A DNA stretch of 64,000 nucleotides from Eledone cirrhosa. Taxonomy: Eukaryota. The DNA lies in contig OZ024745.1 in the NCBI GenBank assembly GCA_964016885.1, forward strand, positions 41,478,001 through 41,542,000. Reading direction: 5' to 3'. Shown in pieces: positions 5,659-50,160 of this stretch (its first letter is position 1; every line of letters starts with the position of its first letter). Under the pieces are notes generated by a model that was given only the letters and a program-made list of their open reading frames with translations, searched no databases and had not been told where the DNA came from. Made by a program: the position numbers and the translations under genes.

Positions 5659-5700
<42 letters not shown>

Positions 5701-5706
<6 letters not shown>

Positions 5707-5963
5707 GTGAGGTTTATTTTACAAAATGAAAAATAACCGAGGTGTCCTACACGAGTGAAAGTATAAAGAAAAAGAGATGAAATCGAAAATGCAACTGGAG
5801 TCTTATTTTTTTTTTAAATATATATATTTATTTGGTTCCACAGACCCTCCATCTCAACTCACCTTTTGAAAAGCAGAAGAACTGCGAAACCGGTAAAGGA
5901 ACCAAATAAATATATATATTTTTTAAAAAAATAAGACTCCAGTTGCATTTTCGATTTCATCTC

Positions 5964-5967
<4 letters not shown>
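5701..5967. mobile_element. Family A hammerhead-containing fold-back insertion in (TA)n (PLE pLTR-derived, non-autonomous)
   Basis: Inverted arms ~5766-5839 and 5898-5967, extra tail 5702-5765 starting tagaaagtgagg, HHR at 5862-5899. Same family at 16859 and 18508. Confidence 0.8.
5862..5899 (+). ncRNA. Minimal type I hammerhead ribozyme, U3-A8 core variant
   Basis: cctt-TTGAAAA-gcag(aagaa)ctgc-GAAA-ccgg-TA-aagg: stem I cctt/aagg, stem II gcag/ctgc, palindromic stem III ccgg, UA cleavage site. Confidence 0.8.
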
Positions 5968-6038
<71 letters not shown>

Positions 6039-7050: not shown

Positions 7051-7251
7051 CTAGTTGATGTGTAAATTCGAATGCGAGAGTCTTGTGTCTATGTTAGAAA
7101 CCGACTCTCTCTCTATTGGTAAAACTTTGTGAAATTATAAAACCAGAAGAACATACATACATACATACATACATACATACATACATACATACATACATAC
7201 ATACATACATACATACATCCTTCCTCAGTTTTATATATATACATATATAGA
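7051..7251 (-). mobile_element. Short non-autonomous Helitron-like element
   Basis: Minus-strand 5' end TCtatatgtatatatataaaactgagg resembles that at 47905. Internal (ATGT)n, CTAG at 7051-7054. Confidence 0.45.
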
Positions 7252-7268
7252 TTAAAATAATAGATTAA

Positions 7269-7319
7269 AATTTAAGCAAAGAATCGTTGCTTTCACCCTT
7301 AATGGGATCTTCTGAAACT
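7269..7319 (-). ncRNA. Type I hammerhead ribozyme, family B (CAGAAGA core, U4A)
   Basis: agttt-CAGAAGA-tcccattaagggt-GAAA-gca(acgattctt)tgc-TT-aaatt. Same family at 50059 and 13632. Confidence 0.65.
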
Positions 7320-7439
7320 AAAAACATCAATCTGTGAACGCAGAAGTAAATATTTCGAAAAACGTTGCAACCGAAGGAAAACAGGAAGACGATACTTTGG
7401 TTCGTGAAGACGTTCCCTGGCAATGAACGGAAAATAGCG

Positions 7440-7730
7440 AACATAATACGTCATCAATGTTCGTCAGAATGCCGTAATGCAGACAGCCAGGCATACAGAC
7501 AGATATTATAAGAGCGCGACGGAGATGGATAACCTGCGCCTAACACCTCTTTAACAACAGAAAATTGAAAAATAGAAGCTGCAGTTAATATCTTTAGACC
7601 GCAAGGAATATATAAATGCAAGTTTGAAGTCAATCGGAGTAGAAATTTGGATTTGTATAGACTTTGCAAAAATGAGGACACGCACACACACACACACACA
7701 CTCAGACAACATCAGTTTTATATATATAGA
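7440..7730 (-). mobile_element. Helitron-like 5' fragment
   Basis: Minus strand starts TCtatatatataaaactgatg followed by (TG)n, like the other Helitron 5' ends in the window. Confidence 0.45.
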
Positions 7731-7791
7731 TAAAGTGAATAGGGTATAAGGAAAAGGCTAGGCAAAATCTTACATAAACGGTTATTATTTT

Positions 7792-8130
7792 GGCAGCATC
7801 GGTGGAGGGTCGGACGCCATGCTTTCCAGCATAGTTACGTCCCTTTACGATCTGAGTTCAAATCCCGCCGAGGTTGACTTTGCCTTTCATCCATACGGGG
7901 TCGATAAAATAAAGTACCAGTAATGCACTGGGTAATTGCTGGCCTTGTGCCTAACGTAGAAACAATTATTAGATTGCCAGAATCTTAGAGTATCGGAGAA
8001 AATGCTTTGCTGCATTTATTCCGGCTCTTTACAACCTGAGTTGAAATCTCGCCAAGGTCTACTTCATCTTTTATCACTTCGGGGTCGATTTAATTGACTT
8101 TGTCCTCCCGTCAAATTGTTGGCCTTGTGT
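7792..8130 (+). mobile_element. Tandem pair of tRNA-derived SINEs (Nin/Deu-like core)
   Basis: B-box gagttcaaatccc followed by conserved core gactttgcctttcatcc...ggggtcgataaaataaagtaccag. A second diverged copy starts ~7971. Confidence 0.8.
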
Positions 8131-10609: not shown

Positions 10610-10873
10610 TTTATCGACCATGTGTGGATAAAAGGTGAAGTTGACTTTGACACCATTTGAACTCAGAACGCAAAGAAATTGGAATAAATAATTGTTTCTA
10701 CTTTAGGCACAAGACCAGCAATTACCCAGTGCATTACTGGTACTTTATTTTATCGACCCCGTAAGGATGAAAGGCAAAGTCAACCTCGGCGGGATTTGAA
10801 CTCAGATCGTAAAGGGACGTAACTATGCTGGAAAGCATGGCGTCCGACCCTCTACCGATACTGCCAATCCACC
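10610..10873 (-). mobile_element. tRNA-derived SINE (full copy 10688-10873 plus an older partial copy)
   Basis: Reverse complement of the 7792 SINE, near identical. Confidence 0.85.
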
Positions 10874-12313: not shown

Positions 12314-12317
<4 letters not shown>

Positions 12318-12850
12318 CACATGAATCAAAGTTCTGTTCAAACCATTTATTAGCTTACAATTGTTTCGTCCAAACCGAGGGTTGGGGCCTTCGGAGCAAT
12401 TTTTCAATGATTGTTTACATACATGACCTCCTTTCCAACACAAGAGACATACAGAAACATATGTATATATCGATGCACAGTGGGGTGACATCCATTATAA
12501 TATTTTAGCATGGCAATTTACATTCAAAAATTAAAATCATATTAAAAGAAAATTAAAACAAAATTAAAGTTAAAGTACATCTGCAGTTTACGAAGATAAT
12601 GCAAGAGGATAGTTTGAAGTAGTTAGTGTATGCAATAGTTACACGTGGGGCATGCACGTGTGTCTTATTTATATAAGATTATTGTGCGGCAAGGTGTTAT
12701 ATGCAATACAAGCACTTTAAGCAGAACTTTGATTTATGTGATTTCTATATAACTGCTTTGTAGAACAACTGATGTTATTACATTGAGCTATTTATCTTAC
12801 TGGTAATAAGGTAGTAATAAATTACTGTCTTTCACTGTTTAGGGTTTAAA
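12314..12850 (-). mobile_element. PLE-derived remnant with terminal inverted segment and hammerhead
   Basis: 12314-12340 is inverted at ~12716-12745, followed by a tail. (TA)n flanks, HHR at 12349-12400. Confidence 0.55.
12349..12400 (-). ncRNA. Minimal hammerhead ribozyme, CCGAAG core (degenerate)
   Basis: attgct-CCGAAG-gccccaacc(ctc)ggtttggac-GAAA-caattg-TA-agctaat, with palindromic stem III caattg. Confidence 0.6.
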
Positions 12851-13521: not shown

Positions 13522-13720
13522 GTAATAATAATAAATTTGAAGACTAAAATCCAAAGACGGCTCGATAAGGATAAATATATATTAGATATATAAGAACCGT
13601 AGAGCAAATATTTATTAAAATAACAGATTAAAGTTTAAGCAAAGAATCGCTGCTTTCACCCGTTAAGGGTGAAAGCAGCGATTCTTTGCTTAAACTTTAA
13701 TCTGTTATTTTAATAAATAT
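13522..13720. mobile_element. Family B fold-back insertion in (TA)n, apex at hammerhead stem II
   Basis: Perfect palindrome ~13607-13719 centred on ttcacccgttaagggtgaa. Tail 13522-13606 is also seen at 50237-50286. Confidence 0.8.
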
Positions 13721-13735
13721 ATATATATATATATA

Positions 13736-13929
13736 TAGGAAAATGTAAGACCCCAACGGCAGAGCTCAAGCCCTTTCGACGGCTATCTCTGAGTCCAGAA
13801 ATAGCCGTCGAAACGGCTTGAGCTCTGCCGTCGGGGTCTTACATTTTCCTATTACCCACTCTACTACCATAAGTATTGAGTACTCTGGTACGTTATGGTC
13901 CATCTGGTTCCTTACCACAACTCCTTCGT
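13736..13929. mobile_element. Family C fold-back insertion in (TA)n with half hammerhead
   Basis: Palindrome 13736-13851. Right arm reads stem II gacggctat...atagccgtc, then GAAA-cggc(ttgagctct)gccg-TC-gggg. Tail 13852-13929. Related sequence at ~15430-15460. Confidence 0.7.
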
Positions 13930-13932
13930 TAT

Positions 13933-14582
13933 ATATATATATATAAAGTTGTATTCCTGTCTCTTTGTTTGTTTGTTTGTTCACGAACTACTTCTATGGT
14001 TTGGAGATAGACCCCCCATAACCATATATATTCTGAAACTACATTGCCCAGAGTACTTGGATAGGTATATTTCATTTTAATCAAAGGGTTTCCCGGGGGC
14101 ACAAAACCCCGCTGAAATTTTTTCCCTTCGATTTGTATGAAATTTAAACCATAGATAAAAGACAAGATATGATTCCTATTCACAGAATTTCAGCAAATTT
14201 CAATAATATTAAGACACCCTAATGGGGGTTAAACCCCCATATTAGGGTTCCCCGGAGGCACAAACACCCGCTGAAAGTTTTTCCTTTCGATTTATATGAA
14301 ATTTAAACCATAGGTAAATGACAAGATATGATGCCTATTCACAAAAGTTTTGAATTTATATTTTGAAAAAAATTATTTACAAGAAACAAAATAAGAATAC
14401 GATTCATTTGATTTAATATATTACAAAAAATAATGTTTTCCAATTTTTCATGCATTACATTTTACATTGAGTAATATTGAAATGCAGGGTTTTTCTCCAT
14501 AAATTATATCACTGATTTAAAATCAATCATCATTTTCTTACAAAAAAAAATGTGTGCAGCAAGACGCGGGTAATTCGGCTAG
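13933..14582 (+). mobile_element. Non-autonomous Helitron with internal ~160-bp tandem duplication
   Basis: 5' tatatatataaagttg...(GTTT)n, duplicated block at 14085/14244, 3' end gacgcgggtaattcggCTAG. Confidence 0.6.
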
Positions 14583-16010
14583 TACATATATATATTCATA
14601 TATATATATATATATATATATAAATCTACGAAATCACATTACCACGAGGTGCGTTGCGCATTCATAGCATTGTAACATTGTGCCACACACCATTTTGCTC
14701 AAAGCTAACTGAAATGAATTCAGCAACAGAGTACACCACTCACAGACTCAGTGATGTAGTGGCAATATTGAACAAATTAATTAAGGTTATCAATAGAATT
14801 AATATGACTAGCAACAAATCGACCATCAAATCAATTAATGAAAAATATCCAAATTATTGATATATCCAACAAGTAAATTAAGGCCGCCAATAAAATTAAT
14901 ACAACTAACAACAAACAATCGATAATCGAATCAATTAATAAAAATATAAAAAGATATTGATATATATCCAAACCAGTACCAGTTTCACTAAATGACGAAC
15001 TACAAGTATCAGTTACGTAAATAAGTGTATATTCAAACACTCAGTGGCATCACAACCCGGAATCGGCATAAGGATCGTCGGTGGGCATTATCCTGTACCT
15101 AACACAGGGAAAAAATAAGACATTTTATTAGGCATTTGCCATAGTGACATTCACCAGCTCTGCTTTTGTGTGCATGCCACTAACCTTGAAAACAAGTAGA
15201 TGTATCTATGCTGTGTTGTCCAAAAGAGGCAGGAATTAATGGAAAAAATTAATTCGCGTTTTCAGAAATTTTACTCATAGTAAAATTACTACTTGGAGTA
15301 AACTATATTCATAAATTTAGGAAATCATATTGCCACGAGGAGCTTTGCAGATCCATGGCATTGTAACACCGTGCCACACACTATCTCACTCAATGCTGGT
15401 TGTTTCAACAGTCAGTCCGGAATTAGCTATTGAAACGACAAGAGCTCAGCCGTCGGGTTCTGAATCTTTATAATTCCCCATAAAAACTTGTCCTCTGTTA
15501 ATTATCTCACGTTTATATATATCTTCCCTTACTGCTATCCTCTTTCTCTCTCCCCCTTCTCTCTCTTACTTTCACTCACCCCCTCTGCTAGTCAACCTCT
15601 CTCGGCTAGCCCCTTCCTCGCACTTTCACTCATTCACTCTCTGCTACTCATCCTCTCTCTCACTTCCTCCATCGTCCCACACCCTACGTGATCCTTTTCC
15701 TCGCTCGTTCTTATGTTCGAAATGAATTATTGACTTGATTTTTCATTTTTTCCTCTCTTTACGTTGCCTCACCATTCGTGTTTGTTTGCATGTCTCTCTT
15801 TCTCCACCCAATCTTTTTATCCCAATAACTTATTTTAGTTATTGTATCGCCCTAGCTGGAAGTATATTGTCTGTAATGCGAAGAAATACCTATGATGGCT
15901 AGTAGACAACTGATGATGGATATTCCTAACTTCTATTTCTAATTCTCCATTTATTATAGTTAACTGCAACAACACAGCTCGCCTTTTTTATTTATATATA
16001 TATATATATA

Positions 16011-16460
16011 TAATTAGGGAAGTAGAAAATTGCTTATTGTGATCCAGTTCTTGGTTAAGAAAGCCAGTTTCATGGATGGTTTCAACGTACGGTTAGGGGT
16101 GACTCCACAAGTTTGTAAGAATTCCCTTTAATCTTGGAGTATAAAGTATAAAAGAGAAAACACAGGTAAGCATTAAGAGAAGGATTTTATCCAGGTATGT
16201 ACGACCGTTTCATTGGTAAGTGCAACCTTATATTGCTATACTGCAAATAGGAGCCACTCAATTATAATTGTTGTTCACAGTCAAAATTTTCATTAAAAAA
16301 ATTTAAAAAATTTGAAAATTTGGACTGTGAACAACAATTTTAATTGAGTGGCTGCTATTTGCAGTATAGCAATATAAGATTGCACTTACCAATGAAACGG
16401 TCGTAAATACCTGGATAAAATCCTCCTCTTAATGCTTACCTGTGTTTTCTCTTTCATACT
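16011..16460. mobile_element. Family D fold-back insertion in (TA)n with half hammerheads
   Basis: Imperfect palindrome ~16146-16460. Each arm carries GAAA-cggtcg-TA-(a/c)atacc but no CUGANGA. Tail 16011-16145. Confidence 0.7.
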
Positions 16461-16470
16461 ATATATATAT

Positions 16471-16811
16471 AAATAAAATTAGAATTGGTGCTCTGAAATA
16501 GCTATATATATATGAATGTATATATAGTGTATTTTGCAATACACTGTATGCTTCATTAAAACCATTTCGAAGACCGTATGCTATTATTTTAGAGTAGTGA
16601 CAGGCTCACTTACTTTAATGTTCACCAAACAGGGGAGATAAAGCTGACAAGGCCCTGTTTCGCATTTATTGATGCTTATCAAAGCTTTATCTCCCCTTTT
16701 TGTTGCAAATTAAAGTAAGTGAGTCTGTCACTACTCTAAAAGAATAGCATAAGGTCTTCGAAATGCTTTTAATTAAGCATACAGTGTATTACAAAATACA
16801 CTATATATACA

Positions 16812-16820
<9 letters not shown>
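16471..16820. mobile_element. Family E fold-back insertion; ~135-bp arms extend hammerhead stem I
   Basis: Arms ~16506-16645 and 16683-16820 with a complete HHR as the loop. Tail 16471-16505, (TA)n flanks. Confidence 0.85.
16642..16686 (-). ncRNA. Type I hammerhead ribozyme, U3-A8 core variant
   Basis: agct-TTGATAA-gcat(caataa)atgc-GAAA-cagggccttg-TC-agct, with a GUC cleavage triplet. Confidence 0.85.
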
Positions 16821-16858
<38 letters not shown>

Positions 16859-16864
<6 letters not shown>

Positions 16865-17198
16865 GTGAGGTTTTTTTTACAAAATGAAAAATAACCGAGG
16901 TGTCCTACACGAGTGGAAATATAAAGAAAAAGGGATGAAATCGAAAATGCAACTGAAGTCTTATTTTTTTTTTAAATATATATATTTATTTGGTTCCTTT
17001 ACCGGTTTCGCAGTTCTTCTGCTTTTCAAAAGGTGAGTTGAGATGGAGGGTCTGTGGTTTAAAAACCACAGACCCTCCATCTCAACTCACCCTTTGAAAA
17101 GCAGAAGAACTGCGAAACCGGTAAAGGAACCAAATAAATATATATATTTTTTTTAAAAATAAGACTTCAGTTGCATTTTCGATTTCATCCCTTTTTCT
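16859..17198. mobile_element. Family A palindromic insertion with two divergent hammerheads
   Basis: Palindrome ~16920-17198 centred on ggtttaaaaacc. HHRs at 16996-17033 (minus) and 17090-17127 (plus). Tail 16859-16920. Confidence 0.85.
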
Positions 17199-17271
17199 TT
17201 ATATATATATATATATATATAAGTGTATATGTGTGTGTATATGTATGTGTATGTATATGAGCATGTATATA

Positions 17272-17336
<65 letters not shown>

Positions 17337-17420
17337 ATATATATGTATATGTATATATATATATGTGTATATGTGTGTGTGTGTATGTGTATATATATGT
17401 ATATATATGTATATATATAA

Positions 17421-17460
<40 letters not shown>

Positions 17461-18153
17461 ATGTGTATATATATGTATATATATATATGTATAAATATAT
17501 ATATATATATATATATATTATTTTTATATTCTTTTAATTTCCCCTCATCTTTAACAGCACTTTTCAACTGCATCTAACTCTTATTTATCATATCTATATG
17601 TATTAGTATAATTTTATCAATATAAATATACCCATCAATTAAATTAATTTATATTCTTTTCATAGATGTATTTTTTTCACTAACATTCTTATCTTAAAAC
17701 TTTAGTCACCTTAGATATTTGTATTGGCATTACTACTTTATAACAGCAACTGCTTGTATACCTTTTACTGACCATCTGACCTATTTTCACCCCTAAAATA
17801 AGCTTCAATTACTACTACTTTACCATTTGGCCAATTATTAACTTTCTATTGGTTAATTCTAAACCTCTTACCAAACAGACAGAATATATTAGATCTTTGT
17901 TGGTTTTATTCAATGAAAAAATAAAATTATTTCTGAGGTCAGCATGAGACCTATTTCTTCCCTAAAATAATCCTTCATTCATAATATTCTTTTCCATCCA
18001 AAACTGAAATCTACCTTCCTCTACCCATAATTTAAGGTTCTTCTACTACTATATTACTATCCTGACCCTCACTATCTCTCTATTGGTCAATTCAAAACCT
18101 GTTCCCAAACAGACCTATTGTATTGAATCTTTGTTTTTTTCAATAAACAAATA

Positions 18154-18295
18154 TCATTATTTCTGAAGACAGCATATATATGTGTAGGTATGTATATTCC
18201 CTCTGATAGTTTGTATAAATATTGTACATAGATCTATAGAATATGCATACCAACTCTAACACATATATATCCTAGAAACGATCGTAAAATGATGA
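18154..18295 (+). ncRNA. Type I hammerhead ribozyme with ~105-nt extended stem II
   Basis: tcattattt-CTGAAGA-[long imperfect hairpin: atatatatgtgt/acacatatatat and ggtatgtatattc/gaatatgcatacc]-GAAA-cgatcg-TA-aaatgatga. Stem I is 9 bp and stem III is palindromic. Confidence 0.75.
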
Positions 18296-18507
18296 ATTTT
18301 TTTAATATAAGGAACTGTTTCTTTGTTTATTCATTATTTTATTAATTTATCTTGACTCTGTTTTCCGTTTATTTTTCACCGAAAGTAGTTTTTGAATGCA
18401 TCTTCTCTTTTCATGATATCCGGATTACATTGAGTTCTTCATACGGATTGGACACTACCGTAAACTTTTGGTAGATTTATCTACATACTATATATATATA
18501 TATATAT

Positions 18508-19203
18508 TAGAAAGTGAGGTTTTTTTACAAAATGAAAAATAACCGAGGTGTCCTACACGAGTGAAAGTATAAAGAAAAAAAGATGAAATCGAAAATGCAA
18601 CTGGAGTCTTATTTTAAAAAAATATATATATTTATTTCGTTCCTTTACCGGTTTCGCAGTTCTGCTTTTCAAAAGTAGAGTTGAGATGGAGGGTCTGTGG
18701 TTTTTTTCACATCTGGTTGGTCTCTGAATGTTACTTGTTTTATATGGAAAAAGTGGCTCGAAATGCCAGGTTTTTCGAGAAGTAATTTGATTGGTTGGTC
18801 AATAATTATAATAAATTTCGCGCCAGTTCGCGTTACAAAGTTCTTCAATCAAAGGGGGGGGGTGTCATAGGTTGTTTTTTCATATATGAGTGTTTCAATT
18901 TATTTTTACTTAAAAAAAAGGGGGCTCACGAAGGCTTTTTTTTTAATAAACGTAATTTGATTGGTTATAAATGAAATTATGGTTGTCACGTGAACAAGTT
19001 TTCATTAAATTTTCGCGCCCTTATTTGGAAATCCATTCTGTAGCATTTTTAGAGAAGTTTATGACAAGTAAAAGATAATGGTCAAGAGAAATTGGATGGG
19101 AGAATTGTTCTGGTTCAGTGAATATGGTTAGTTCGCTGGGGTGTCAGAATTCAGATTTTCTATTGAATAAAGAAAGTAAAGATATGTATGTTTATTTGTG
19201 TGC

Positions 19204-19237
<34 letters not shown>

Positions 19238-19995
19238 TTCTTTTTACTTAAAAAAGGGGCTCACGAAGGCTTTTTTTTTATAAAACCAATCAAATTACGT
19301 TTATTTAAAAAAAGCCTTCGTGAGCCCCTTTTTTTAAGTAAAAAGAAATTCAAACACACACACACACACAAGCACACAAATAAACATACATATCTTTACT
19401 TTCTTTATTCAATAGAAAATCTGAATTCTGACACCCCAGCGAACTAACCATATTCACTGAACCAGAACAATTCTCCCATCCAATTTCTCTTGACCATTAT
19501 CTTTTACTTGTCATAAAATTCTCTAAAAAGGCTACAGAATGGATTTCCAAATAAGGGCGCGAAAATTTAATGAAAACTTGTTCACGTGACAACCATAATT
19601 TCATTTATAACCAATCAAATTATGCTTATTAAAAAAAAAGCCTTCGTGAGCCCCCTTTTTTTAAGTAAAAATAAATTGAAACACTCATATATGAAAAAAC
19701 AACCTGATACCCCCTCCCCCTTGTTTGAAGAACTTTGTAACGCGAACTGGCGCGAAATTTATTATAATTATTGACCAACCAATCAAATTACTTCTCGAAA
19801 AACCTGGCATTTCGAGCCACTTTTTCCATATAAAACAAGTAACATTCAGAGACCAACCAGATGTGAAAAAAACCACAAACCCTCCATCTCAACTCTACTT
19901 TTGAAAAGCAGAAGAACTGCGAAACCGGTAAAGGAACCAAATAAATATATATATTTTTTTAAAAATAAGACTCCAGTTGCATTTTCGATTTCATC

Positions 19996-19999
<4 letters not shown>
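18508..19999. mobile_element. Family A ~1.4-kb palindromic insertion with two divergent hammerheads
   Basis: Near-identical arms ~18570-19278 and 19306-19999. HHRs at 18642-18675 (minus) and 19898-19934 (plus). Same tail as 5702 and 16859, (TA)n flanks. Confidence 0.85.
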
Positions 20000-20057
<58 letters not shown>

Positions 20058-20184
20058 CAGTTCACTCAGCTGTAGAAATGATTTTACCCAGCTATGGGTT
20101 AAATAGCCTGACCGAAGCCAGAAACATAAAACGGTGAATGTCAATCAGGGAGGGGTTCTTCCGGTAGGAGTGAAAAGGCCCTGG

Positions 20185-20240
<56 letters not shown>

Positions 20241-20244
<4 letters not shown>

Positions 20245-20675
20245 AAAGAATAGAGGTGTAACACACAAGTTATTATATATTGGTAAACGGAATAGAAAAT
20301 GCTGACAAATTGTTCACAGTTGAAAAATGGTTTAATTAGGAATAAAAGAGTATTAGTGATTGTATGGGTTAGTATTCAGTTGTGGTTTTAAGTTTTTAAG
20401 TTTTTACCGGTTGCGCATTTCTAAATGCTTTTCAAAAATAATTTTGAGATAGAGTGTCCGTGCTGTTTGCTCTGATCTGAGCAAACAGCACGGACACTCT
20501 ATCTCAAAATTATTTTTGAAAAGCATTTAGAAATGCGCAACCGGTAAAAACTTAAAAACTTAAAACCACAACTGAATACTAACCCATACAATCACTAATA
20601 CTCTTTTATTCCTAATTAAACCATTTTTCAACTGTGAACAATTTGTTAGCATTTTCTATTCCGTTTACCAATATA
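20241..20675. mobile_element. Family F palindromic insertion with two hammerheads (UUGAAAA / GCAA variant)
   Basis: Palindrome ~20273-20675 centred at ~20475. ttt-TTGAAAA-gcattt(ag)aaatgc-GCAA-ccgg-TA-aaa at 20513-20549 (plus) and 20402-20438 (minus). Tail 20241-20272. Confidence 0.8.
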
Positions 20676-21689
20676 TATATATATATATATATGTGTGAAG
20701 GTGTGTGTGTGCGTCTGCGTAAATAGAGAGAGGGAAGTAGGTAGCAGAGACAAAGAAGAAGAGCTAGATGGACAGTAAGACAGGCAGCATAAACGTAGCA
20801 TTGTCTTAAGCAACTTAATGCACTTGCCAAAGTTTTTTTAACATTGCAGCCATATAAAATACGATTATTATCTCACAGAAATATGAGCCAATTCATATTT
20901 GAATATGTGTTGGGGGGGGGGGGGGGGTTGTGTGCGTGCGTGTGTGTGTTTGCGCGAGTGTGTGTGTGTATGTGTGTGTAGCTGATACATAGCATGAACA
21001 TTAAATAATGTAGTATATGCCAAGGAAGTGTATATATTTAAACCGTAGTATGTGAACATTTGTATCGAATGGAAGTTTGTAGACTTACCCTACGTTTTTG
21101 GCAACATGATGCATATATCAACTAGGTTTATTGAACAGTATGTCCATATTTGTATTCTTTAAATAACATAAACACTGGAACATAGATCCCCTACCCCATT
21201 ATATATATGCATAAAAATACATATATGCTTACATACATACATATTATCTGCTGTAACATGATTTCACGCTTGTGTGTGATCAGGTAATTGAACAGATCGC
21301 TGTGTGTGTCTGTGTGTGTGTGTGTGTGTGTGTTTCATATTTAAGACATAACTATTTTGTAGTATGTTGTATTGTATTACGGGTTTTTCACATTTCCTTA
21401 ATACCTCATTGTGTTTAGCTTGGAACTATAGCGATCCTAAATCTATATGTCTTCTGAAAGTTAAACATTTCACATCCTTATCTTCAGAAATAAAAGGTGG
21501 ATAGCAAAGGTGTGCTGTTCGCGTGTTTTGTATTTGTCGCAAAGGATCGTGGGAATACTGGTTTAAATATCTAACGGTTTAAATATCTATTAATGAAATC
21601 ATTAAGGTCAAATACTGGTCAAACCATGTTCGATAGATAATAGATAGACATACATACAGACAGACAGTCATAATTACAAATAGACAGAC

Positions 21690-21750
<61 letters not shown>

Positions 21751-21751
<1 letters not shown>

Positions 21752-22589
21752 ATTTCTTTATTAGCCACAAGGGCACAAAAGAAGGGGACAAATACAAATG
21801 GGGAGTTTACATACAGGTATATGAAAATAAAACTATTAATACAATAACAAATAACAATTGAAATCCCCAATAGGGGGGAGGTGTTACACGGGGGTTGTAC
21901 ACACCCCGAAAAAATGTACAACCCACATCTCCAGGAGCATCAAGAGTGAGTACTCCCTTCCTCTCTTCCTCTTTTTCCTCAACCTACAGGCTTATATAGA
22001 GAGAAGGCCCAACCACTCGCGCCATCTTTGCCACATTCACCCACCTTTTATAAAATTATCTGATTCTTCTTCTAAAATGATATTTGAAAAAACGAATCAG
22101 TTGCTCGCCGGAGAGGACGGTGTCTGACATCAGCTCTTTTAACCTCGTCCACCATATAACCTCTTTCACCATAGCCATAACACATAGGAAAACAGCCTCT
22201 CCCTCGTTTTTGAAGGAGGGTGGCGGTTTGATCTTGACAATGGACTCGGTGGTCAACTGGATTGGTCCCACTCGTGACAATAGTCGTTCTACATAGCCCC
22301 ACAGGTCAGTAACGCCCGGGCAGTGTACAAATGCGTGTGTGACGGTTTCCTCGTCGCGCACGCATCTCGGACAGATCTTTTTCGAAGGGTCCTTATCCGG
22401 GCGCCCGTGTCTGTAGAGCTTGTCTCGAACTGATAGAGCTCCTCGGTAGCACTGCCAAGCCAGGGACTTTTGGTAGTTGACCATTGGTCCCGGGCGGAAG
22501 GTCCTACCGAACAGACTGGCCAGTTCGTCCTCCTCTACGCCTAGAGTTTCTCCGAGCGTGTCGTCGCATTTGCTGCGGACCAACCCTCT

Positions 22590-22594
<5 letters not shown>
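21751..22594 (-). mobile_element. 5'-truncated Tx1-clade LINE (ORF2 C-terminus + 3' UTR) in (GATA)n
   Basis: ORF 22056-22583 has the zf-RVT-type motif CPRC..DEETVTHAFVHC. The 3' end ttgtggctaataaagaaat is followed by (ATCT)n. Confidence 0.9.
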
Positions 22595-22627
<33 letters not shown>

Positions 22628-23257
22628 TTCTTTATTAGCCACAAGGGCGCAACAAGAAAGGGGACAATACAAAGACATGCCGGGGATTTTACATACAGTC
22701 GTGTAAAAAAATATAAAAACAAACAATTTCAACAATCGAAATCCCCAATAGGGGGGAGACGCCACAAATGGGTTGTTTAATACCCCGTCGATAGAACAAC
22801 CCTCAACTCGAGGAGCGTGTTGTGCAAGTGCTCCTTTCTTCCTTTTGCTCTCTTCCTCAACCTACAGGCTTATAAACAGAGAAGGCCCAATCACTCGGGC
22901 CATTTTCGCTTCATTCACCCACCTTTCAGTAAATTTACTGGGGTGCAGTGCCTCTCTCTCCACCCTGATTCTCCTTCTAAAGTGATACTTAAAGAATGGA
23001 ATCAATTGTTGTCCGGAGAGAAAGGCATCTGTCCTCAGTCCTCTCAACCTCGTCCACCATATAACTTCTTTCACCATAGCCACCGTACAGAGGAAAACCG
23101 CTTCTCTTTCGTTTTTGAAAGAGTCTGGCGGTTTGATCCTTACTATGGACTTGGCAGTCAACTGTATTTGTCCCATACGCGACAGCAGTTGTTCTGCATA
23201 GTTCCACAGGTCGCTTACGCCCGAGCAGTGTACAATTGCGTGCAGAACTGTTTCAAT
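22628..23257 (-). mobile_element. Second 5'-truncated Tx1-clade LINE in (GATA)n
   Basis: ETVLHAIVHCSGVSDLW...FKYHFRRRIRVER, homologous to 24833-25456. Same 3' terminus, (GATA)n on both sides. Confidence 0.9.
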
Positions 23258-23301
23258 TAGATAGATAGATAGATAGATAGATAGATATGTTTCTTTATTT
23301 T

Positions 23302-23341
<40 letters not shown>

Positions 23342-23395
23342 CATGCATACATTGTTGGACACCGTCGTTTTTCAATGTTTCTGTTGTCGCTTATG

Positions 23396-23590
23396 CCGAC
23401 CTACCAATTCTACCCGTCGGACGGGGAGATCTCCCACCCACTTTGGGTTGGGTGAGAGATGTCCTCTCTTGTGAAAATGGGTATAGCTTACATTATGTAA
23501 AATCTCCCCACGTTGCCTCATTTCTTCGCGTTTTGGGGCACCTTTTTTCATAGTACTCACCGTTTACGTTTTCAGAGATTGGCAGGTCTG
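23396..23590. mobile_element. MITE with CAGACCTGCCAA-like TIRs
   Basis: Ends ccgacctaccaa / ttggcaggtctg, flanks cttatg/cttatt. Second copy at 58184-58354. Confidence 0.55.
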
Positions 23591-24832
23591 CTTATTTTAC
23601 CCCATTTCAACCTTACTTGGGATGGTGAAAGTGATGTGGATTGGTAATTTAGAGTAGATTGAAGACATCTTTCAGTAATATAGAAAATGACTTTTTCCAT
23701 TGGTCATCCCTGGTTATATACAACTTATGATGTAAACAAATAGTATACATTTTGTAGTTACACGAACAAATATTTTAGATCAACATATGTAGGTATTTAG
23801 TGGTACGTAAGGTCCTTTGTAATGACAAGGTACATTTGGTGGAACCCTATATTCTTGCTAACTATTACATAGCAGAATTGTATTAGCAGTAGCTAGAGAA
23901 TTCGGTCACTGCTTCATCGCAGAAGGATTTGTCAATAATAAGTTCTTAACACCTTACCTTTATCTCAGGTGTTTTAGCACCCTAAATCTCAACTTCCTTA
24001 CAAGCTTGTAAATGTCCTACTCCTCTTTAATTATACAATACCAATTTTCGAATGTGTTAAACATATTCAAGCGTTCAAATATGCTCATACTTTATTCAGT
24101 AAGTCCTTAGTTTCATTGGTTAAGTGTCATAAAGTTGCTACTGTGAAATCGCTTGTTAATAATACTCAGCACTGTGAGCCATAAATATCCAATAAATCCC
24201 ACCCTTTAAAGCATACTCTACCATCTTAAAACAAATGTGTTATATTGGATAACGTAGTTCAAAGTACGCTATATCTGAATAGAAAAGCATGGAGAGTTAC
24301 GGCCGGGATACATTTGATCATCAAAAGTCTGCTTGACTAGGGCTAATTTATATATTTATGACTAGAAAATTTGATACTGGTCATGCGAAGTATATTGTCA
24401 AATATAGTAGTTTCTTTCTGGAGGAGGTTTGAACTAAGGGTTAACACCCTCTTCTATTGACAGGAGAGACATAAAAAGACAGAGAAATGATGAGTGATGT
24501 TGAATGAAGAAAATTGTAGGAGAAAGCATTAAGTATATAACAAAATATATGTATATAAATAGATAGATAGATAACTTTCTTTTTATTTGCCACCAGGGCG
24601 TCAAAGAGTGGGACAAGTACAATGGGGGAGTTTACATAAAAAGGCGTCCTCAATAAGGAGGAGGCAATAACAAAATATAAAAATATAAGATATAAAATAT
24701 AACAAAAATAAATTGAATAACAAAATCCTCAATAGGGAGGAGGCGCTTTGGGGGGTCGCACACACCCCCGAAAAAGTGTGCAACCCTTCTCCTCAGGAGC
24801 ACAGAGCTCCCTTGATCTTTCATCTTTCTCAC

Positions 24833-27800
24833 CTACAGTCTGATGTAGAGTGAAGGCCCATTCACACGGGCCATTCTCGTCACTTTCACCCATCTTTCAT
24901 AAAAACGACTGGGGTGCAGCACCTCTCTCTCCATCCTGATCCTTCTTCCGAAATAATATCGGAAGAAACGGAGCAGTTGTTGGCCAGAGAGAAAGGTGTC
25001 TGACCTCAGTCCTTTCAGACGCGTCCACCATACAACCTCTTTCGCCATGGCTATTACGCACAGAAACACCGCCTCTCCTTCGTTTCTGAAGAGGGGAGGC
25101 GGCTTGATCGTTACAATAGACTTGGTGATCAACCGGATCGGTCCCACCCGTGACAGCAGTCGTTCGACATAGCCCCACAGATCGGCAATGCCCGAGCAGT
25201 GTACCAATGCGTGTGCAACGGTTTCCTCGTCGCACCGGCATCTGGGAAAGATCTTTATCGAGGGGTCCCTACCCGGGCGCCCGTGTCTGTAGAGCCTTTC
25301 TCGAATGGGCAGAGCCCCTCGGTAGCACTTCCAGACCAGAGAGCTCTGGAAATTATCCATAGGTCCCGGGCTGAATGTCCTAACGAACAGGTTGGCCAGT
25401 TCGTTTTCCTCTATGCCTAGGGCTTCTCCGAGGGCGTCGTCGCACCTGCTAACCACCAGCCCTCTATAGAATGACGAGGTGTATTCTCCACTGACAGCCG
25501 GGTCCGCCTGCCATAGAGCCGTGAGCGCCTGGGCACACTCGGTGTGCCAGGCGCCCAGTTTTCTCGGTCTTTGCTTGACTCAGGATTGCAGCTCGGTGAG
25601 CGAAACGAATCTGGGAAAGGCTCGCCTCACTAACGGGGCCCACACCGGTTGACCGGTGAGGAATACCTGGAGATGCCGTAGCCTTAATGCGTGTTTACGC
25701 ATCATCAGCCACGGCATGCCCAGGCCCTCCTTTCGAAGGGTGTTGACAGCAGATAGATCTCCTCACCATAGGAGCCCGCTTCTTCCAAAGGAATTGGAAG
25801 AGTGCGCGCTCCATTTTGGCGAGCGTTTCCCTTGGACAAGGCACGACGGTCAGGCGGTAGTAGATGACGGATGCTATATAAGTGTTCGCCACCTCCGCCC
25901 GACCTTTCAGGGACAGTTTGCACTCGGCCCACTTCTGGGTCAGTGCAAACACCCTGTTTGTTACCTCACCCCAGTTCTTCTCCGCCTGGAGGTCTGGTCC
26001 GAACCAGACTCCGAGCAACTTCACTGGGCCCTCCGTCAAGCGCCCGCCGACGCCATCGTAGGGCATCGATTTGCCCCTCCACGTGCCGAGTTGCAGACCG
26101 ATCGACTTGTCCCGGTTCAGCTTAGCCCCTGTAAACCTTTCGTACTCCTCCAGTAAGGTGCCGATCGCCCCGAATTCCGAGGCCGTCGACACCATTACTG
26201 TTACGTCATCGGCGTAGGCCGACACCGCTTTCCGCAATCCCGGTTCTAACGGGATGCCCCGCAACACCTCCAACTTCCGCAGTAGTGGCTCTAGAGTCAT
26301 TACATACAGAAGGGAGGAGAGAGGGCACCCTTGTCGGATGGACCGCGCCATTTCGAACGGCTCCGAGAGGTAGCCGTTCACTTTGACCCTAGAGCAGATG
26401 CGGCTGCTGTGCATGGCAGTGATCCAGCCCCTGAAAACGGGTCCGAAGCCTGCCGCCGCTAGCACCATATCCAGGTAACCATGGTCGACCCTATCGAACG
26501 CCTTAGATTGATCCAAGTTGATCAGGGCCCCACCAAAGCCGGGTTCGTTCCCAACCCTCTCTATCGTGTAACGCATGAGATGGAGGTTGTCGTGGATGGA
26601 CCTGGATGGGATAGCACATGTCTGCGCATCTCCCACCAGGTTGCCCACGACAAGCGCCAACCTCTTTGCTAGCATCTTGGCCAAAATCTGTAACTCTGTA
26701 TTTAGCAGAGTTATGGGCCTGAAATTATTTATATCGTCCCCCTTGTTCTCGTCCTTCCTCACTAGCGTGACTACGCCCTTGGTCACAGCACAGGGAATTC
26801 TCCCGTTCTGTTGCCCGTTGCAGTAGACCGCCTCGAGGAGATCGGGGAACAAGTCCAGCATAGCTAGATATAGTTCGTATGGAAAACCATCGAGACCTGG
26901 GGATGTGCGTTTGCCGCATTGGCTCAGCACGTCCTCTAGCTCAGCACCTGAAATCGGCTCCTCGCAGGACTTCGCCTCCCTGTCCGAGAGACGCGGCAGG
27001 CCGTCGAGGTATGGACCGAAGTCCACTTCCCCAACCGGCTCCCCGCCCCTTCCGAACAATCTGGCAAAGTGCTTTTGAAAAGCCTCGCAAATCTGCTTAG
27101 GTTCAAGGATCACCCATCCATCCTGGTCTCGCAAAGACCGGATAGTGGATCTAGTCTCTCTTTTAGCCTCTGTCACGCGGGCCCAGCTAACAGCTTTGGT
27201 CCCCTCGTTTCCCAGAGCACGTATTTTGCTTCGGACGATGTAGCCTTCGTGCTTCGCGTCGAAGAACTGGCCCAGGGCCGTTCTAGACGGTAGCACTCTG
27301 GCCACGTCGCCGCTTCTAATTGCCTCTTCTACACTAGCTACCAACTCCCTTTCCTTCCTATTTCTATTTGAGGCTAACTCCTTACTAAATTCTATAGCGA
27401 CTACTCTAATCTCTCTTTTGAGAGAGCCCCACCACCTGCTGTTGACGATGGCGCCCGTCAACCGCGCCTTAACTAAAATGCTAATCCGGTCCCTGTAAGC
27501 TTTACTTGCCGGTAAGGACAAGTTGAGCTTCCAGTAACCGGGTCCCTGTCTATGCGTTCTGTCAAGGTTGACCATGCAAGTCACTAACTTGTGGTCTGAA
27601 TAGCCAACTATGAGCATTTTTGGACAACTTAAAAAGTCCTTATCCTCATTTCTAACTAAGAACCTATCTAGGTACGATCTAGATGATCCGCTGGGGTTTG
27701 CCCAAGTCCAGGTTGGCGCAGTCGGAAAATCTAGTCGATATCTATCGGTCAGGTCAAATCGGCCGAGTAACCCTTTGAGGCTGTTACACCCCCCTCTATC

Positions 27801-30808: not shown

Positions 30809-33800
30809 ATGACCCTCCCAAAGTATAACAATATCGGTTTCAACACACGATTTCAGATAAAGAATCTTGCTAAACAAATTCAGAAACGAAATATCGTAAG
30901 CCTTAGCCAGGCTAACAAGATACTGAAAACCACCATGTTCTGTTGTCTACGAAAAACCATAACATCTCGACAACTACACTTCATAAAACTGTGCACCACT
31001 TCTAGAATCTACACCAACACCATCAATACCGACGTTAGAAGATTACAACTCACCAAAAAACAAGCAGATAGGCTAAAACGAACTTTAATTCTAAACATAA
31101 AAAAGAAGATCTATAGAGAATTAAGTCATCAAGAAAAACTAAAGCGTAACTTAATACAAGAAATATCTAAAATCACCACACCAGCAGAAAAACTAACATC
31201 TATAAGCCTTATACGCCCCGAAGAACAGTACATTACTCAAGAATGTGATAACCACTTTAACAGAAAATTAAAGTGGCTTAAACAGGCAAAGCTAAATCGG
31301 GATACTATAGAGTATACCAATAGATATCCCGACAAAATTGACGGTATCAACATGGCCGACACCTCATTATCTGAAGAGTTCAACAACGAAAATACCAACA
31401 TTTATGGAAACACGGAAATAGATAATAATGAAATGTCTGTATTACGTCTGCCACCCAAATATGCGACATTCAGGAGGGTAAATATGATTAGTTGTCTGTC
31501 AGAAATAGAAAAATCATTTACAAAACTACGCTGGAGCATCAAAAACAAAAGCAACAATATACGCACACACATATACAACACACATCCCAACAACGACAGA
31601 CACACAGACAAAAACAACAATAACAACAACAACAACAATAGCAACATACCCAGATACAACAACAACAATAGCAACATACCCAGATACAACAACAACAGAC
31701 ACGCAGACACAAACAACAATAACAACACACACAGCAACGATAACACACACGGAGACAACAATAACAACAACACACACATCAACAACAATAGCAACATACC
31801 CAGATACAACAACAACAGACACGCAGACACAAACAACAATAACAACACACACAACAACGATAACACACACACACACGGAGACAACAACAAAACACATCAA
31901 CAACAACACACATCAACAACAACAACACACACGCATTCAATGCCTCTCACCACCACCACAATCTTAACAAACACACAGACACAGAAAACAAGTAATGACA
32001 GTAGCACAGAAATCAGAGAAATAAGAGAAAGTAATAGGATTAAAAAGAATAAGAGATGGGAGACTAAGGACAAAGAGAATAACCAAGACGAACACACAGA
32101 CACACAAAATAGGGTAGATAACAACATTGAGCCAGTGGAAAGAGACAGGAGTAATTATGAGAGACATAGAAACAACCATGAAGCTGAGGCTGCTGGTGGA
32201 AATAGAAATAGAAATAACACAACTAACAATAATAATAGCACTAGTACACATAAAGCAGCAGCCTGGAACTCTCCGTTTTATAACCCCTCCGATAAATCAT
32301 TCGACCTACGACGAGTCCACGCCACGACTTTGCCATTTAACAAACGCACGCAGTTGCCGTCGCAGGTCGATGAACAAACAGAAGCACAATTTAGTATAGC
32401 TAAATCCGAACTTAGAAATATTATAGAACAGTATAGCAAGAAGCATAATAGAATAGAGGCCCAGCAACTGGGAGAAGAATCTGCAAATGGCTTGCGTAAG
32501 CTCATGCAGCGCTCGCGTAATGGAGAAATAGCATGTTTTCCAACAGACAAGTCTGGCAGAATGTCGGTTGACAGCCTGCCAAACTACATCCAGGCAATGC
32601 AACCCCACATCACTAACACAAGAGAGGTAACACCACAGGAGCATGAGGATAGAGAAAAAGCCCTCAATGCCCATATGGTGATGTGGACGAATATAATGGA
32701 GCCCAACAAAAGGACTGCCAACAACTTCCAGGCCTGGAACAATGACGTGCCGGCGTTGTATGGGCTTCGAAAAGACCATAAAACGGGCTGGGACCCTGTC
32801 ACGGGACCACCAACACGACCAGTCTGTGGGGCTAACATTGCTAGTAACTACAGACTGTCCTACTTCCTCTCCCTGATCATACGCCCCATCATTGAGATGT
32901 CCCCAGATGTGTGTCACAGCACGGAGGACCTCCTCAGCAGAATCGGCGCGGGTAACCGATCTGGGGATCTGGAGACCTAACAAACTGCATAATAGGCAGT
33001 ATGGATGTTGTGTCCCTGTATCCATCTATTGGCGTGGATTTTGCTGTGGAGAAATGCGTAGAAATGATCAGCGAGAGCAAGGTTGAGTTCCGTGGGATTG
33101 ATACCAGTGAGCTGGGACTTCTACTTAAGCTTACCCATAGTAATAGTTACCTAGACACTTATGACCTTAGCAACCTGTGCCCTACAAGACCAGCAAGAGG
33201 CAGACCACCTACCATTACCTCAATGGCCAAGAAAACCCACACAGATAGATGGAACGGGTGGACCAGAGCCATACGGACACCCGAAAACCACGATGAACTG
33301 AAGAAAATGATTGCACATGCGGTAGGGGCCAGCATAAAATTAACCCTTAAGGAACATATGTTCAAATTTAATGGTAAAACATATGCCCAAGAGGAAGGAG
33401 CAGCCATTGGTGTTAGCATTGCAGGCGACATAGCTAACTTATCCATGGTATGGTGGGACAGTAGACTTAAACAAAAACTTAATGAACAATTAGAAGACAG
33501 CTTAACCCTGATAATGTACTCCCGCTACGTAGATGATATAAACATCGTAGTTAAGACACCCCCACTAAAGAACAGTCAGGAACTAGAGAAAAACACAATG
33601 GAAAGCATCCAGCAAATAGCAAACTCCATCCACCAGAGCATTAGAGTTACTATAGACTACCCAAGTAGACACCCCAACCATCGATTACCTGTACTAGACA
33701 CAGAGCTCTGGTTAGATACCATTAACAACCAAAAACAAATCCTCCATTCCCATTATGCCAAACCCATGACTTCCAAACATCTGATCCACCGAAACTCGGC

Positions 33801-34656
33801 CATTTCGGACCATACCAAAATCAACATACTGATTGCGGATTTGGTACGGGTGATGAGAAATGTGTCCCGCATGTGCAACCCCGAAGAACTAGAGAGACAC
33901 ATACAACACTTCATCCACCGTATGCAGTTCTCTGGCTACAATCAGAGAGATAGAATCAGAGTGTATAAAGAAGCCAGAACCAAATGGGAAAAAATGGTAA
34001 ATAATGACATAAATGGGACCTGCCCCTTGTATAGGAGCAAATTTTGGAATAGAATAGAAAGAACTAGGAACAAGGCCAATAGAATAAACTTATGGTATGA
34101 TAGCAATAAATACCAGAGTGTAATGTTCATCAATACAACCCCTAGAGGCGAACTAGCCTACAAATTTAGAAGGGCCCTAAATAAACATAATCTCAATATT
34201 AAGATAGTAGAAAGACCTGGTACCTCCGTAAAAACACTTATTAGCAAGACATACCCGTTCCAAAGACCCTCATGTATAGATAAGAAATGTATAACCTGTA
34301 AAATAAGCCCCCATATTAACTGTAAAACTAGAAATGTAGTGTATAGCATAAGATGTACTGAAGGACAATGTAGAAACAAAAATATAGTGTACATAGGTGA
34401 GACAGCTCGTAGTATAGGGGAACGAATAAATGAACACTGGCGAGACCTCCAAGATAATAAAGAATCATCTGTGCTCTACCAACATGCTAAGATAGAACAC
34501 AGGGGTAGATTAGAGAGCATAGAAATAAAAATAGAATCCACGCACAGAAAAGACGCAATGTTTAGGCAAATTACAGAGGCAGTAAGCATAAAAGAATTAA
34601 AACCAAAATTAAATAGAAAATACGAGTGGAACAGCAACATCACAACTTACAATTAA
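30809..34656 (+). pseudogene. PLE polyprotein (RT + Cys linker + GIY-YIG endonuclease) with one frameshift
   Basis: PTDKSGR, LYGLRKDHK, RPVCG, SMDVVSLYPSI, GAAIGVSIAGDIANL, SRYVDD, LPVLD, CIDKKCITC, NVVYSIRC..YIGETAR..RINEH..EAVSI..PKLNRK. Frame break at 32958-32973. Confidence 0.92.
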
Positions 34657-35277: not shown

Positions 35278-36269
35278 CTTTCTTCCAATGTCTCTTATCC
35301 TCCAGCTAATAAAGGTCAATTTTCATTATTGCAGTAAAGTGCTCTAGTTAAAGCTAAGTTGATGTTATTGAGTACAAATCTGGTCTGTATCTATAAAGAT
35401 ATCTATATAAATGAAGTTAATTCATTGCAGTTTCATTTGATACATAAACTCGTTTCTTTATTTGTTTATGTCTCTTTCTCTCACTCTTATCCCCTCTCTC
35501 ATTCTTTCACTTTTTCTCTCCCTCCCTCTTTCTTTTATTCTGTCTCTCTATTTTGGCTCTTTTCCTCCTAAGTCCGAGAATATATTTATTTTCCTCTTTT
35601 CCGCCCTTTCCTTTTATCTGTCTTTATGTCGCCCTATCTATATGACTATCAACGTCTGTCTATATGTGAAACTTTATACATACATATGTATACGAATAGA
35701 TAAATTTATATAACTGTGTATGTATTTGTATAGAGACGTACAGACAGATTGTAAGTAATCCATTTATTACAGCGAAATATTTTCAAATACTATATCTGTT
35801 GGTTATATATAGTTATTTGAAGTTTTATATTCGGAATTAATACCAGAATTATCATCAGAATAGCAAACGCATGTTCAAAGCAAATGCCTTAGTGCCTTGT
35901 CATGAAATACTTTCTAAATGGCAACAAGAGCACAATAACAACAACAAAAATAACTACGCGAGCATTTACTAATAACAACACAAGAATATCTGCAGAAGCA
36001 ACAGCAACAACATCAAGATCAACAGAGTCAGCAGCAACACAACAGCAAGCAACAAAACCAACAATAGTAACAACAGTAGCAGCGGCATCAACAACAGCAA
36101 CAGCAACAGGAGCAGCAGCAAAAACAACAACAAATCTCACAGCAGCAGCAGAAACTCTGTCAGAAACAAAAGCAACAACAGCAGCAAAATCTCTGTCTGT
36201 AACAAAAGCAACATCTGCAGCAAAAACAACCATTATAACAACAGTAACAAGGAAGGTGGAATGGCACAA

Positions 36270-36465
36270 TTGGTAGAACGTCGGACAACATGCTTCGCGG
36301 CATATCGTTACGTCCCTTTACGTTCTGAGTTCAAATTCAACCAGGGTTAGCTTTGGCTTTCATCATTACGGAGTCAATAAAATAAAATACCAACAACGCA
36401 CTAGGGTCGATTTAATTGACATCCCCCTCCCCAAAATTGTTGGTCTTTTGCCTAAATCAGAAACC
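36270..36465 (+). mobile_element. tRNA-derived SINE
   Basis: Same core as the 7792 copy. Confidence 0.75.
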
Positions 36466-36929
36466 ACCATTACAACAATAACAACAATCTTAGCGATAAC
36501 ATCAGCAACAACAGCATGAATAAGAAGAATAACAAAGACGGTCAAAAAGAAGAGCATATAACAAAGAAAAAAAAGTAAAAGTATCAAGCTGGTCATCAGA
36601 TCGAACCAGGAAAACGATTCTTCTATTCATGATTCCATTGCTGAGACTATGTGCCGATCGCAATATCTAAGGATCATAAAAGTAGAGATAGATGTAAACA
36701 AGGAAGAAAATAGTGATTTCTAATTTAAGCAGAAAGCCTAGAATTTATGGGGAAAAGAAATTCGATTATATAGACCCAGTACTTAACTGGTACTTTATGT
36801 TATCAACCACGGAAGGATGTAATTTTTAAAGTTGATCTCTGCAGGTTTGAACTCAGAACGTAAAGGGCTGTAACTAGATGCCTCAAAGCATGTTGTCCTA
36901 GGCATTTAGTTACGGCCCTTTAGACACTT

Positions 36930-37385: not shown

Positions 37386-37404
37386 AGAGAGAACATAATG
37401 GTTT

Positions 37405-50109: not shown

Positions 50110-50120
50110 TTAATCTGTTA

Positions 50121-50160
<40 letters not shown>

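Follow-up and report, generated by a model that had tools for sequence, protein, structure and literature searches.

The window, i.e. the whole stretch of DNA analysed here, comprises 64,000 nt of the 3.0-Gb genome of Eledone cirrhosa (G000:C5:41478001-41542000) and contains a cluster of palindromic insertions in TA repeats. Five of the six families represented are 5′-truncated ends of the pseudo-long terminal repeats (pLTRs) of coding Penelope-like elements (PLEs), three of them Hydra-like and two Neptune-like, and the sixth is a 318-bp unit with the DNA anatomy of a retrozyme. We consider it probable that the palindromes of all six families were built on site by two primings across a cut in (TA)n. 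An earlier note, made from the sequence alone, had taken the palindromes for protein-free elements mobilized in trans by PLE enzymes. Because open reading frames (ORFs) of same-family parents were found, this does not hold for five of the families; only the insertion at 16471 (family F4) is a non-autonomous unit.

Palindromic insertions in the window

Self-BLAST and a repeat finder recovered all seven palindromes of the cluster where the earlier note had placed them, with their tails and TA flanks (self-BLAST spans 13608-13720, 13735-13852, 16140-16465, 16503-16825, 16919-17204, 18568-20009, and 20274-20677). The families are named F1 (13522), F2 (13736), F3 (16011), F4 (16471), F5 (5701, 16859, and 18508), and F6 (20241). 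One arm of each palindrome carries an extra tail of 86, 80, 136, 29, 63, and 37 nt in F1 to F6, respectively, in agreement with the 30-135 nt by which one arm had been said to continue. Several families are indeed present, but 'about six unrelated families' must be reduced to five unrelated groups, as the F6 palindrome at 20241 is 74% like F5 over ~120 nt; the five coding families can be paired in ten ways, and the other nine pairings showed no match within the last 320 nt. Of two additional palindromes that had been listed, the one at 5701 is real and is an asymmetric F5 pair, whereas the one at 12314 lacks a clear tail, and its core has decayed.

5699..5975, asymmetric pair of F5: the tailed arm spans 141 nt counted from the tail end and starts 2 nt past the predicted cleavage site; tail-less arm with a 60-nt longer reach
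12314..12750, older family: arm (-) of ~400 nt, its hammerhead-like core decayed, and an inverted piece of ~30 nt
13522..13720, F1 stub of a Hydra-like PLE: tail 13522-13607; tailed arm (-) to 13666; tail-less arm (+) 13659-13720; each arm holds the 3′ half of the hammerhead only
13735..13931, F2 stub of a second Hydra-like PLE: tail-less arm (-) 13735-13791; tailed arm (+) 13792-13931; joint within the long stem II, at the family 5′-end edge
16014..16465, F3 stub of a third Hydra-like PLE: tailed arm (-) 16014-16292, separated by 18 nt from the tail-less arm (+) 16311-16465; the candidate hammerhead is of the U3-A8 kind and has a stem II of ~75 nt
16475..16825, F4 retrozyme-type insertion: tailed arm (-) 16475-16685, with a whole U3-A8 type I hammerhead; tail-less arm (+) 16683-16825, beginning exactly at the predicted cleavage site
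16624-16698 (-), F4 type I hammerhead: Rfam Hammerhead_HH9, sub-threshold at 27.5 bits (gathering score, 52)
16857..17203, F5 stub of a Neptune-like PLE: tailed arm (-) 16857-17060; tail-less arm (+) 17061-17203; both arms with a whole minimal U3-A8 hammerhead
18506..20009, F5 longer pair: arms of ~720-780 nt, extending beyond the family edge on its upstream side
20239..20677, F6 stub of a second Neptune-like PLE: tailed arm (-) 20239-20480; tail-less arm (+) 20474-20677; the core resembles a hammerhead and has A13C

One TA tract is common to several of these elements, and the cluster is best read as the result of repeated landing in (TA)n.

Further pieces of F1, 87-94% like the reference, are present at 7251-7458, 50015-50133, and 50236-50286. 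A decayed F2-like hairpin is located at 15400-15460. At 2497-2760, a further palindrome contains a TA/TG tract in its interior, along with hammerhead-like words that have decayed.

Coding parents and abundance

F5 is the 3′ end of an element whose ORF (L045:4716-7025) encodes RVT_1 and GIY-YIG domains above the Pfam cut-off, and both domains were likewise found in the ORF of the F6 parent (L222:3617-5968). In these parents, an RT (reverse transcriptase) with GIY-YIG at its C-terminus thus immediately precedes the repeat, as in endonuclease-containing PLEs. A 712-residue ORF (L225:2836-4971) is flanked by F1, and ORFs with ~50 and ~36% identity to the F1 protein precede F2 (in L257-L259) and F3 (in L214 and L216), respectively. 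Pfam gave nothing significant in five ORF pieces of F1-F3; their RT and endonuclease motifs were recognized by eye, along with weak tblastn matches to the F5 protein and Atlas neighbours with GIY-YIG/RVT_1. Partial tandems of pLTR-ORF-pLTR, in which the tail runs into the ORF start, were identified for F5 (L046), F1 (L225 and L226), and F6 (L220 and L221), and were not seen for F2 and F3. Among F1-F6, coding parents could thus be traced for every family except F4.

The F1 protein shows the motifs of the Hydra clade, i.e. RWR for RWK, DKT, a CxCX5C linker, CxxC and CxH around E and N, and no CCHH. CxCX5C and the C-terminal Hydra motifs are also found in the F3 protein, and F2 is linked by its ~50% identity only; by these motifs and identities, F1-F3 are classed as probably Hydra-like. 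The F5 and F6 proteins (L045 and L222) have a CX4CxxC linker, within the CX2-5CxxC form of the Neptune clade, and CCHH, motifs from which alone they appear to be Neptune-like, with Nematis as an alternative.

Exact motif matches in the assembly numbered 26,528 for F1, 11,394 for F2, 1,278 for F3, 20 for F4, 10,895 for F5, and 5,574 for F6, whereas the reversed control motifs of each family had none. These counts are of arms, not insertions, and miss diverged copies; with 1,278-26,528 per coding family, they bear out the large copy number that had been anticipated. The family at 12314 gave only 2 exact matches. At least 8 nt of TA repeat abuts 629 of 705 arm ends, and any target-site duplication is therefore hidden. 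Pieces of F1, F2, F4, and F5 also occur in runs X4 and X6, which are labelled as other organisms.

Terminal inverted repeats with TA flanks are what DNA transposons of the miniature inverted-repeat (MITE) type would show, and inverted arms are also what fold-back errors of assembly would leave. Both explanations are hardly credible here and are refuted at the family level: the ends are unequal, the apex is variable, and the parents encode RT, so the fixed terminal repeats and DNA transposase that had been named as a possible objection did not appear, and the earlier view of RNA-derived, PLE-linked insertions at (TA)n stands. Divergence between the arms of a pair is 1.0-5.5%, with full identity in only 16 of 157 pairs. 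A strand-switch joint of F5 (L015 1460-1521) was also found in unassembled short reads from three further samples, all from one study, in which 122, 150, and 181 reads show it; these begin at few places and probably come from one or two loci. TA-flanked starts at L015 1452, the F5 edge, were seen in the reads of these samples as well. Unequal head-to-head joints are also present in X1 short-read contigs, possibly from the assembled sample. The feared assembly artefact is thereby answered for the family; among the contigs aligned to the window, none spans the window's own joints.

Pairing of tailed and tail-less ends

Pairs were scored in 436 loci plus the window, yielding 208 distinct head-to-head pairs of the coding families. 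The samples are non-random (first matches on contig C1, with some loci hand-picked) and blind to tail-less arms shorter than 22 nt; tail-anchored samples are of F2 and F5 only, and F1, F3, F4, and F6 come from ribozyme-anchored loci. Each family has two fixed 3′ end sites, and a tailed end is joined to a tail-less end in 207 of the 208 pairs, the remaining one being tailed + tailed. Among 21 long ORF-bearing loci, 16 were scorable and 14 of these follow the same end rule; L212 has two tail-less ends and L259 was left unresolved (L221 and L225 are counted in both sets).

The lengths of the two arms bear on whether one priming or two occurred. After a single priming, the palindrome would arise by fold-back or self-priming, either of a complementary DNA (cDNA) hairpin or of antisense as proposed in PMC3846280, and later deletions would produce the unequal pairs. 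Such an origin suits the 120 of 207 pairs that are symmetric within 10 nt, the 100 of 208 BLAST-defined joints that overlap by at least 1 nt, and the position of the F2 edge within a hairpin. It also suits the subfamily letters common to both arms, as diagnostic columns were concordant in F2 (175/183, 113 expected), F6 (32/32, 18 expected), and F5 (335/427, 245 expected). However, it predicts a tailed arm at least as long as the tail-less arm, and this is violated in 65 pairs, whose tailed arm falls short by more than 10 nt (the reverse was seen in 22), including 19 pairs without a duplicated part, in which the tailed arm consists of the tail only. Because the fold-back of one cDNA cannot copy sequence absent from the first arm, it hardly accounts for these unequal pairs, which fit two primings on one RNA, and the 'fold-back' label of the earlier note is contradicted. 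The difference amounts to kilobases in L209, L045, and L215; in L209 the tailed arm is 163 nt long and stops at the edge, whereas the tail-less arm exceeds 2 kb. Letters are inserted at 79 of the 208 joints (29 are blunt), copies without an inverted partner end at the same edge, and in F5 and F6 a distance of 35-45 nt separates the edge from the ribozyme core downstream of it. Self-priming is viable only with later one-sided deletions, and we regard it as unlikely.

A further alternative is that the palindromes are self-propagating mini-elements, i.e. protein-free hairpins copied as units by PLE enzymes. The truly ORF-free F4 would fit this description, and in F6 6 of 13 edge-zone pairs have identical joint coordinates. 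These six joints, however, sit on a 4-nt self-complementary word, fall into two sequence variants also found in long linear copies, and belong to loci that had been picked for that spacing. Joint coordinates are mostly unique (45 distinct of 55 in F2 and 20 of 25 in F5), and F4 spreads as a tandem unit, not as a palindrome. Copying of palindromes as units is thus very improbable; the check proposed earlier, whether the apex varies between copies or is fixed, came out in favour of an apex made at insertion.

Rare letters were found in both arms 24 times and in one arm 353 times. No A-to-G hyper-edited arm was detected among 699 arms at the threshold used. On the RNA-sense strand of the five families, C>T and T>C exceed G>A and A>G (426 and 220 vs 163 and 69 in F2), in raw counts un-normalized for base content or subfamilies.

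The 5′-end edge

The 5′ ends of the arms pile up at a family-specific edge. In the tail-anchored sample of F2, 38 of 70 arms end 133-145 nt from the tail end, 7 being longer and 25 shorter. In that of F5 (85 arms, after 5 of 90 loci were dropped as duplicates or unmapped), 37 end at 200-216 and one in the next 17 nt, with 22 longer in all and 26 shorter. When all arms were considered, the edge zone and a window of the same width upstream held 27 and 1 ends in F1, 159 and 15 in F2, 10 and 0 in F3, 91 and 5 in F5, and 34 and 0 in F6. On its upstream side the pile breaks off like a cliff, whereas it slopes away downstream.

In F2, F3, F5, and F6, the edge coincides with an initiator-like pyrimidine-pyrimidine-A step that is preceded, at a distance of 28-35 nt, by a TATA-like run, a geometry with a chance of 0.04-0.07 per 8-nt window, and the edge is likely to be the transcription start predicted from this arrangement. 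The Penelope element of Drosophila has a TATA-less promoter, and its transcription start is within the pLTR (PMC2377424), and TATA and initiator-like motifs have been described in a rotifer pLTR (PMC3846280). The full-length copies examined start upstream of the edge, or near the cleavage site in L221, and would therefore need a longer RNA.

Two primings may also be the correct explanation while the edge marks an RT pause or an RNA processing site. In favour of this, the edges of F1 and F3 coincide with the 5′ strand of stem I of the hammerhead, that of F2 falls in stem II, and F1 lacks a TATA-like run. The TATA-like geometry in four of five families and the upstream cliff with its downstream slope speak for transcription start, and a pause or processing site is doubtful as the source of the edge.

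Predicted hammerhead ribozymes

The earlier note assigned a whole or half type I hammerhead to each element. Halves are present in the copies at 13522 and 13736, but strict and relaxed scans for canonical type I hammerheads found no CUGANGA core in any element, and Rfam gave a single hammerhead match over the window, the sub-threshold Hammerhead_HH9. Longer copies read by inspection contain putative type I folds with a U3-A8 core in F2, F3, F4, and F5. The F6 core would combine U3-A8 with A13C (A13C in 98 of the first 100 matches listed), and that of F1 is changed by U4A. In F2, the sole variable core letter is N7, a free position. Stem II measures 65-75 nt in F2 and F3, and stem III 5 bp in F2. 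Type I hammerheads in the pLTR are a feature of PLE membership; of the predicted folds, those of F2, F3, and F5 have the shape and a U3-A8 core, and those of F1 and F6 have extra core changes. Covariant U3-A8 cores were described in metazoan PLEs in PMC4209133, which attributed opposite-strand motif pairs 100-700 bp apart to truncated PLEs.

In the F1, F2, and F3 parents (L225, L257, and L128), the 3′ pLTR has the whole ribozyme, and the 5′-end edge is located at or within the hammerhead. An RNA beginning at that edge would therefore carry a half (F2) or flush (F1 and F3) ribozyme.

Arms also start at the predicted cleavage site more often than expected (24 observed vs 11.65 expected, P = 0.001) in a corrected range that includes the F2 site, which had been outside the range of a first test (13 observed vs 13 expected); the interval for the second test was chosen once the data had been inspected, and the same position would be expected for an RT pause at stem III. 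The excess comes from tailed arms of F2 and F5 and from F4, with none in F1, F3, and F6. This weak second pile may be a trace of hammerhead self-cleavage in the germ line, and we take it as a hint only.

The putative F4 retrozyme

F4 occurs as 318-bp tandem arrays in L223 and L224, in which the tail runs into the start of the next unit. The unit falls in the 150-450-bp range of retrozymes, contains one predicted type I hammerhead, and has no ORF, its longest stop-free stretch being 63 codons. On DNA anatomy, F4 is a putative non-LTR (long terminal repeat) retrozyme as defined in PMC7229834. No meaningful similarity to the five coding families was found beyond 30 nt of the core. All 15 resolved F4 pairs combine a tailed and a tail-less end, with 7 more having one unresolved end. 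As F4 thus obeys the PLE end rule, its insertions point to PLE machinery acting in trans.

L224:3450-7916 contains a threefold repeat of a ~1.5-kb block in which an F4 array adjoins a fragment of a Hydra-like ORF.

A model of insertion

Under the favoured explanation, the endonuclease would cut both strands in (TA)n, after which one DNA end would prime at the tail end and the other at an internal site of the same RNA. Both cDNAs would extend toward the RNA 5′ end, mostly stopping at the pLTR transcription start, which would lie only 140-290 nt upstream of the tail end, at 140 nt in F2, 160 in F1, 215 in F5, 240 in F6, and 290 in F3. End-joining of the two free ends, followed by fill-in, would give the order tail-arm-apex-arm. 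Success on a single side would leave a plain truncated copy, full-length copies would derive from longer read-through RNA, and retrozyme RNA would use the PLE machinery in trans. Comparable steps were shown for a PLE in vitro in PMC11167929, where AT-rich DNA is cleaved and both strands are extended from two internal RT starts on either side of the tail; a dimer is predicted there.

Several points weigh against two primings ending at a transcription start. The tailed + tailed pair (L133) and the long tail-less + tail-less pair (L212) break the end rule, unequal arms might also arise if one side of a palindrome were deleted later, and when a single arm is very long, the short arm ends in the edge zone in only 2 of 13 pairs. 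The concordance of arms could stem from gene conversion and is uninformative in F1 (8/11 vs 7.1 expected). The F1 edge lacks the TATA-like geometry, and the promoter rule was written after the edges had been seen.

Whether the two primings are obligatory and take place near the RNA 5′ end is a more general proposition. The commonest product would then be a pair of leader cDNAs whose joint maps the transcription start, alike in Hydra-like and Neptune-like families and in the retrozyme, whose ends would then be direct evidence from anatomy for its insertion by PLE enzymes; we hold the evidence for this to be evenly balanced.

Relation to known systems

Two primings on one RNA from both target strands are known as twin priming in L1, where they lead to 5′ inversion. 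L1 inversions are without duplication, whereas both cDNAs here would copy the same segment, giving a palindrome.

Among endonuclease-containing (EN+) PLEs, insertions with an inverted 5′-truncated pLTR, a tail, and (TA)n targets have been reported (PMC3846280 and PMC8557442), and the present elements share with them the head-to-head inverted copy, the one-end tail, the joint palindrome, (TA)n, and the pLTR hammerhead. They differ from those described there in their tails (29-136 vs 30-40 nt), and here the minimal form was counted and the pairing rule and 5′-end edges quantified. The F1 parent resembles the Hydra clade (PMC8557442, section 11) in RWR for RWK, DKT, CxCX5C, the absence of CCHH, a length of ~3 kb, and (TA)n; unlike that clade, the cores are predicted to be non-canonical, with U4A (F1) or U3-A8 and a 65-75-nt stem II (F2 and F3). 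Poseidon of Anolis (PAc; PMC11167929) is similar in its two RT starts bracketing the tail, AT-rich cleavage, and extension of both strands; the ends here, unlike those of PAc, fall on TA-rich words that could pair with the target, and the available PAc text neither derives inverted stubs nor ties joints to transcription start. With the minimal hammerheads of metazoan PLEs (PMC4209133), the elements have in common the U3-A8 core, a palindromic loop 3, and opposite-strand pairs 100-700 bp apart; the fixed A13C of F6 and the 5-bp stem III of F2 set them apart from those described there. F4 agrees with metazoan non-LTR retrozymes (PMC7229834 and bioRxiv 10.64898/2026.07.22.740005) in its ~300-bp tandem unit, low GC, one type I hammerhead, and lack of an ORF. 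Unlike those, F4 copies, known here from DNA alone, have PLE-type tailed and tail-less inverted ends in (TA)n; no tail or inverted insertion anatomy was found in the searched passages of either paper. An unexplained 90-bp palindromic insert is reported in PMC2997562, where the text available makes no link to PLEs.

Inverted 5′-truncated copies, tails, (TA)n targets, and U3-A8 hammerheads are thus already published for PLEs, and the layout is not unrecognized as had been supposed, having been described in PMC3846280, PMC8557442, and PMC4209133; the family lists of PMC8557442 may already include the present families. New here are the pair counts in Hydra-like families, the promoter geometry, and a retrozyme with PLE-type ends. 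A literature search, mostly of open-access papers, found no statement of twin priming, a start-site edge, or PLE-type retrozyme ends.

Other features of the window

33322-34455: PLE-type ORF remnant, 24% identity to the F5 protein
21716-25470: diverged direct repeats of 0.4-0.9 kb, GC-richer
39012-44549 and 53579-55915: long minisatellite arrays (32-bp and 36-bp) with strong strand skew
7790-7970, 10687-10870, 36255-37841, 45423-45607, 52208-52323, and 56169-56359: ~180-bp dispersed repeat resembling a short interspersed element

The stubs also resemble microRNA hairpins, with many sub-threshold Rfam microRNA matches.

Implications

How the inverted repeats and one-sided tails of PLEs originate is listed as unsolved in PMC8557442. 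The genome analysed here contains minimal PLE products in the tens of thousands, and in annotation such stubs could be mistaken for MITEs or microRNA hairpins. From the ends of these products follow predictions that can be tested on the pairing rule, the place of transcription start, and ribozyme cutting. If the mechanism proposed here is true, the link between retrozymes and PLEs would move from circumstantial evidence, i.e. co-occurrence and sequence kinship, to an insertion signature.

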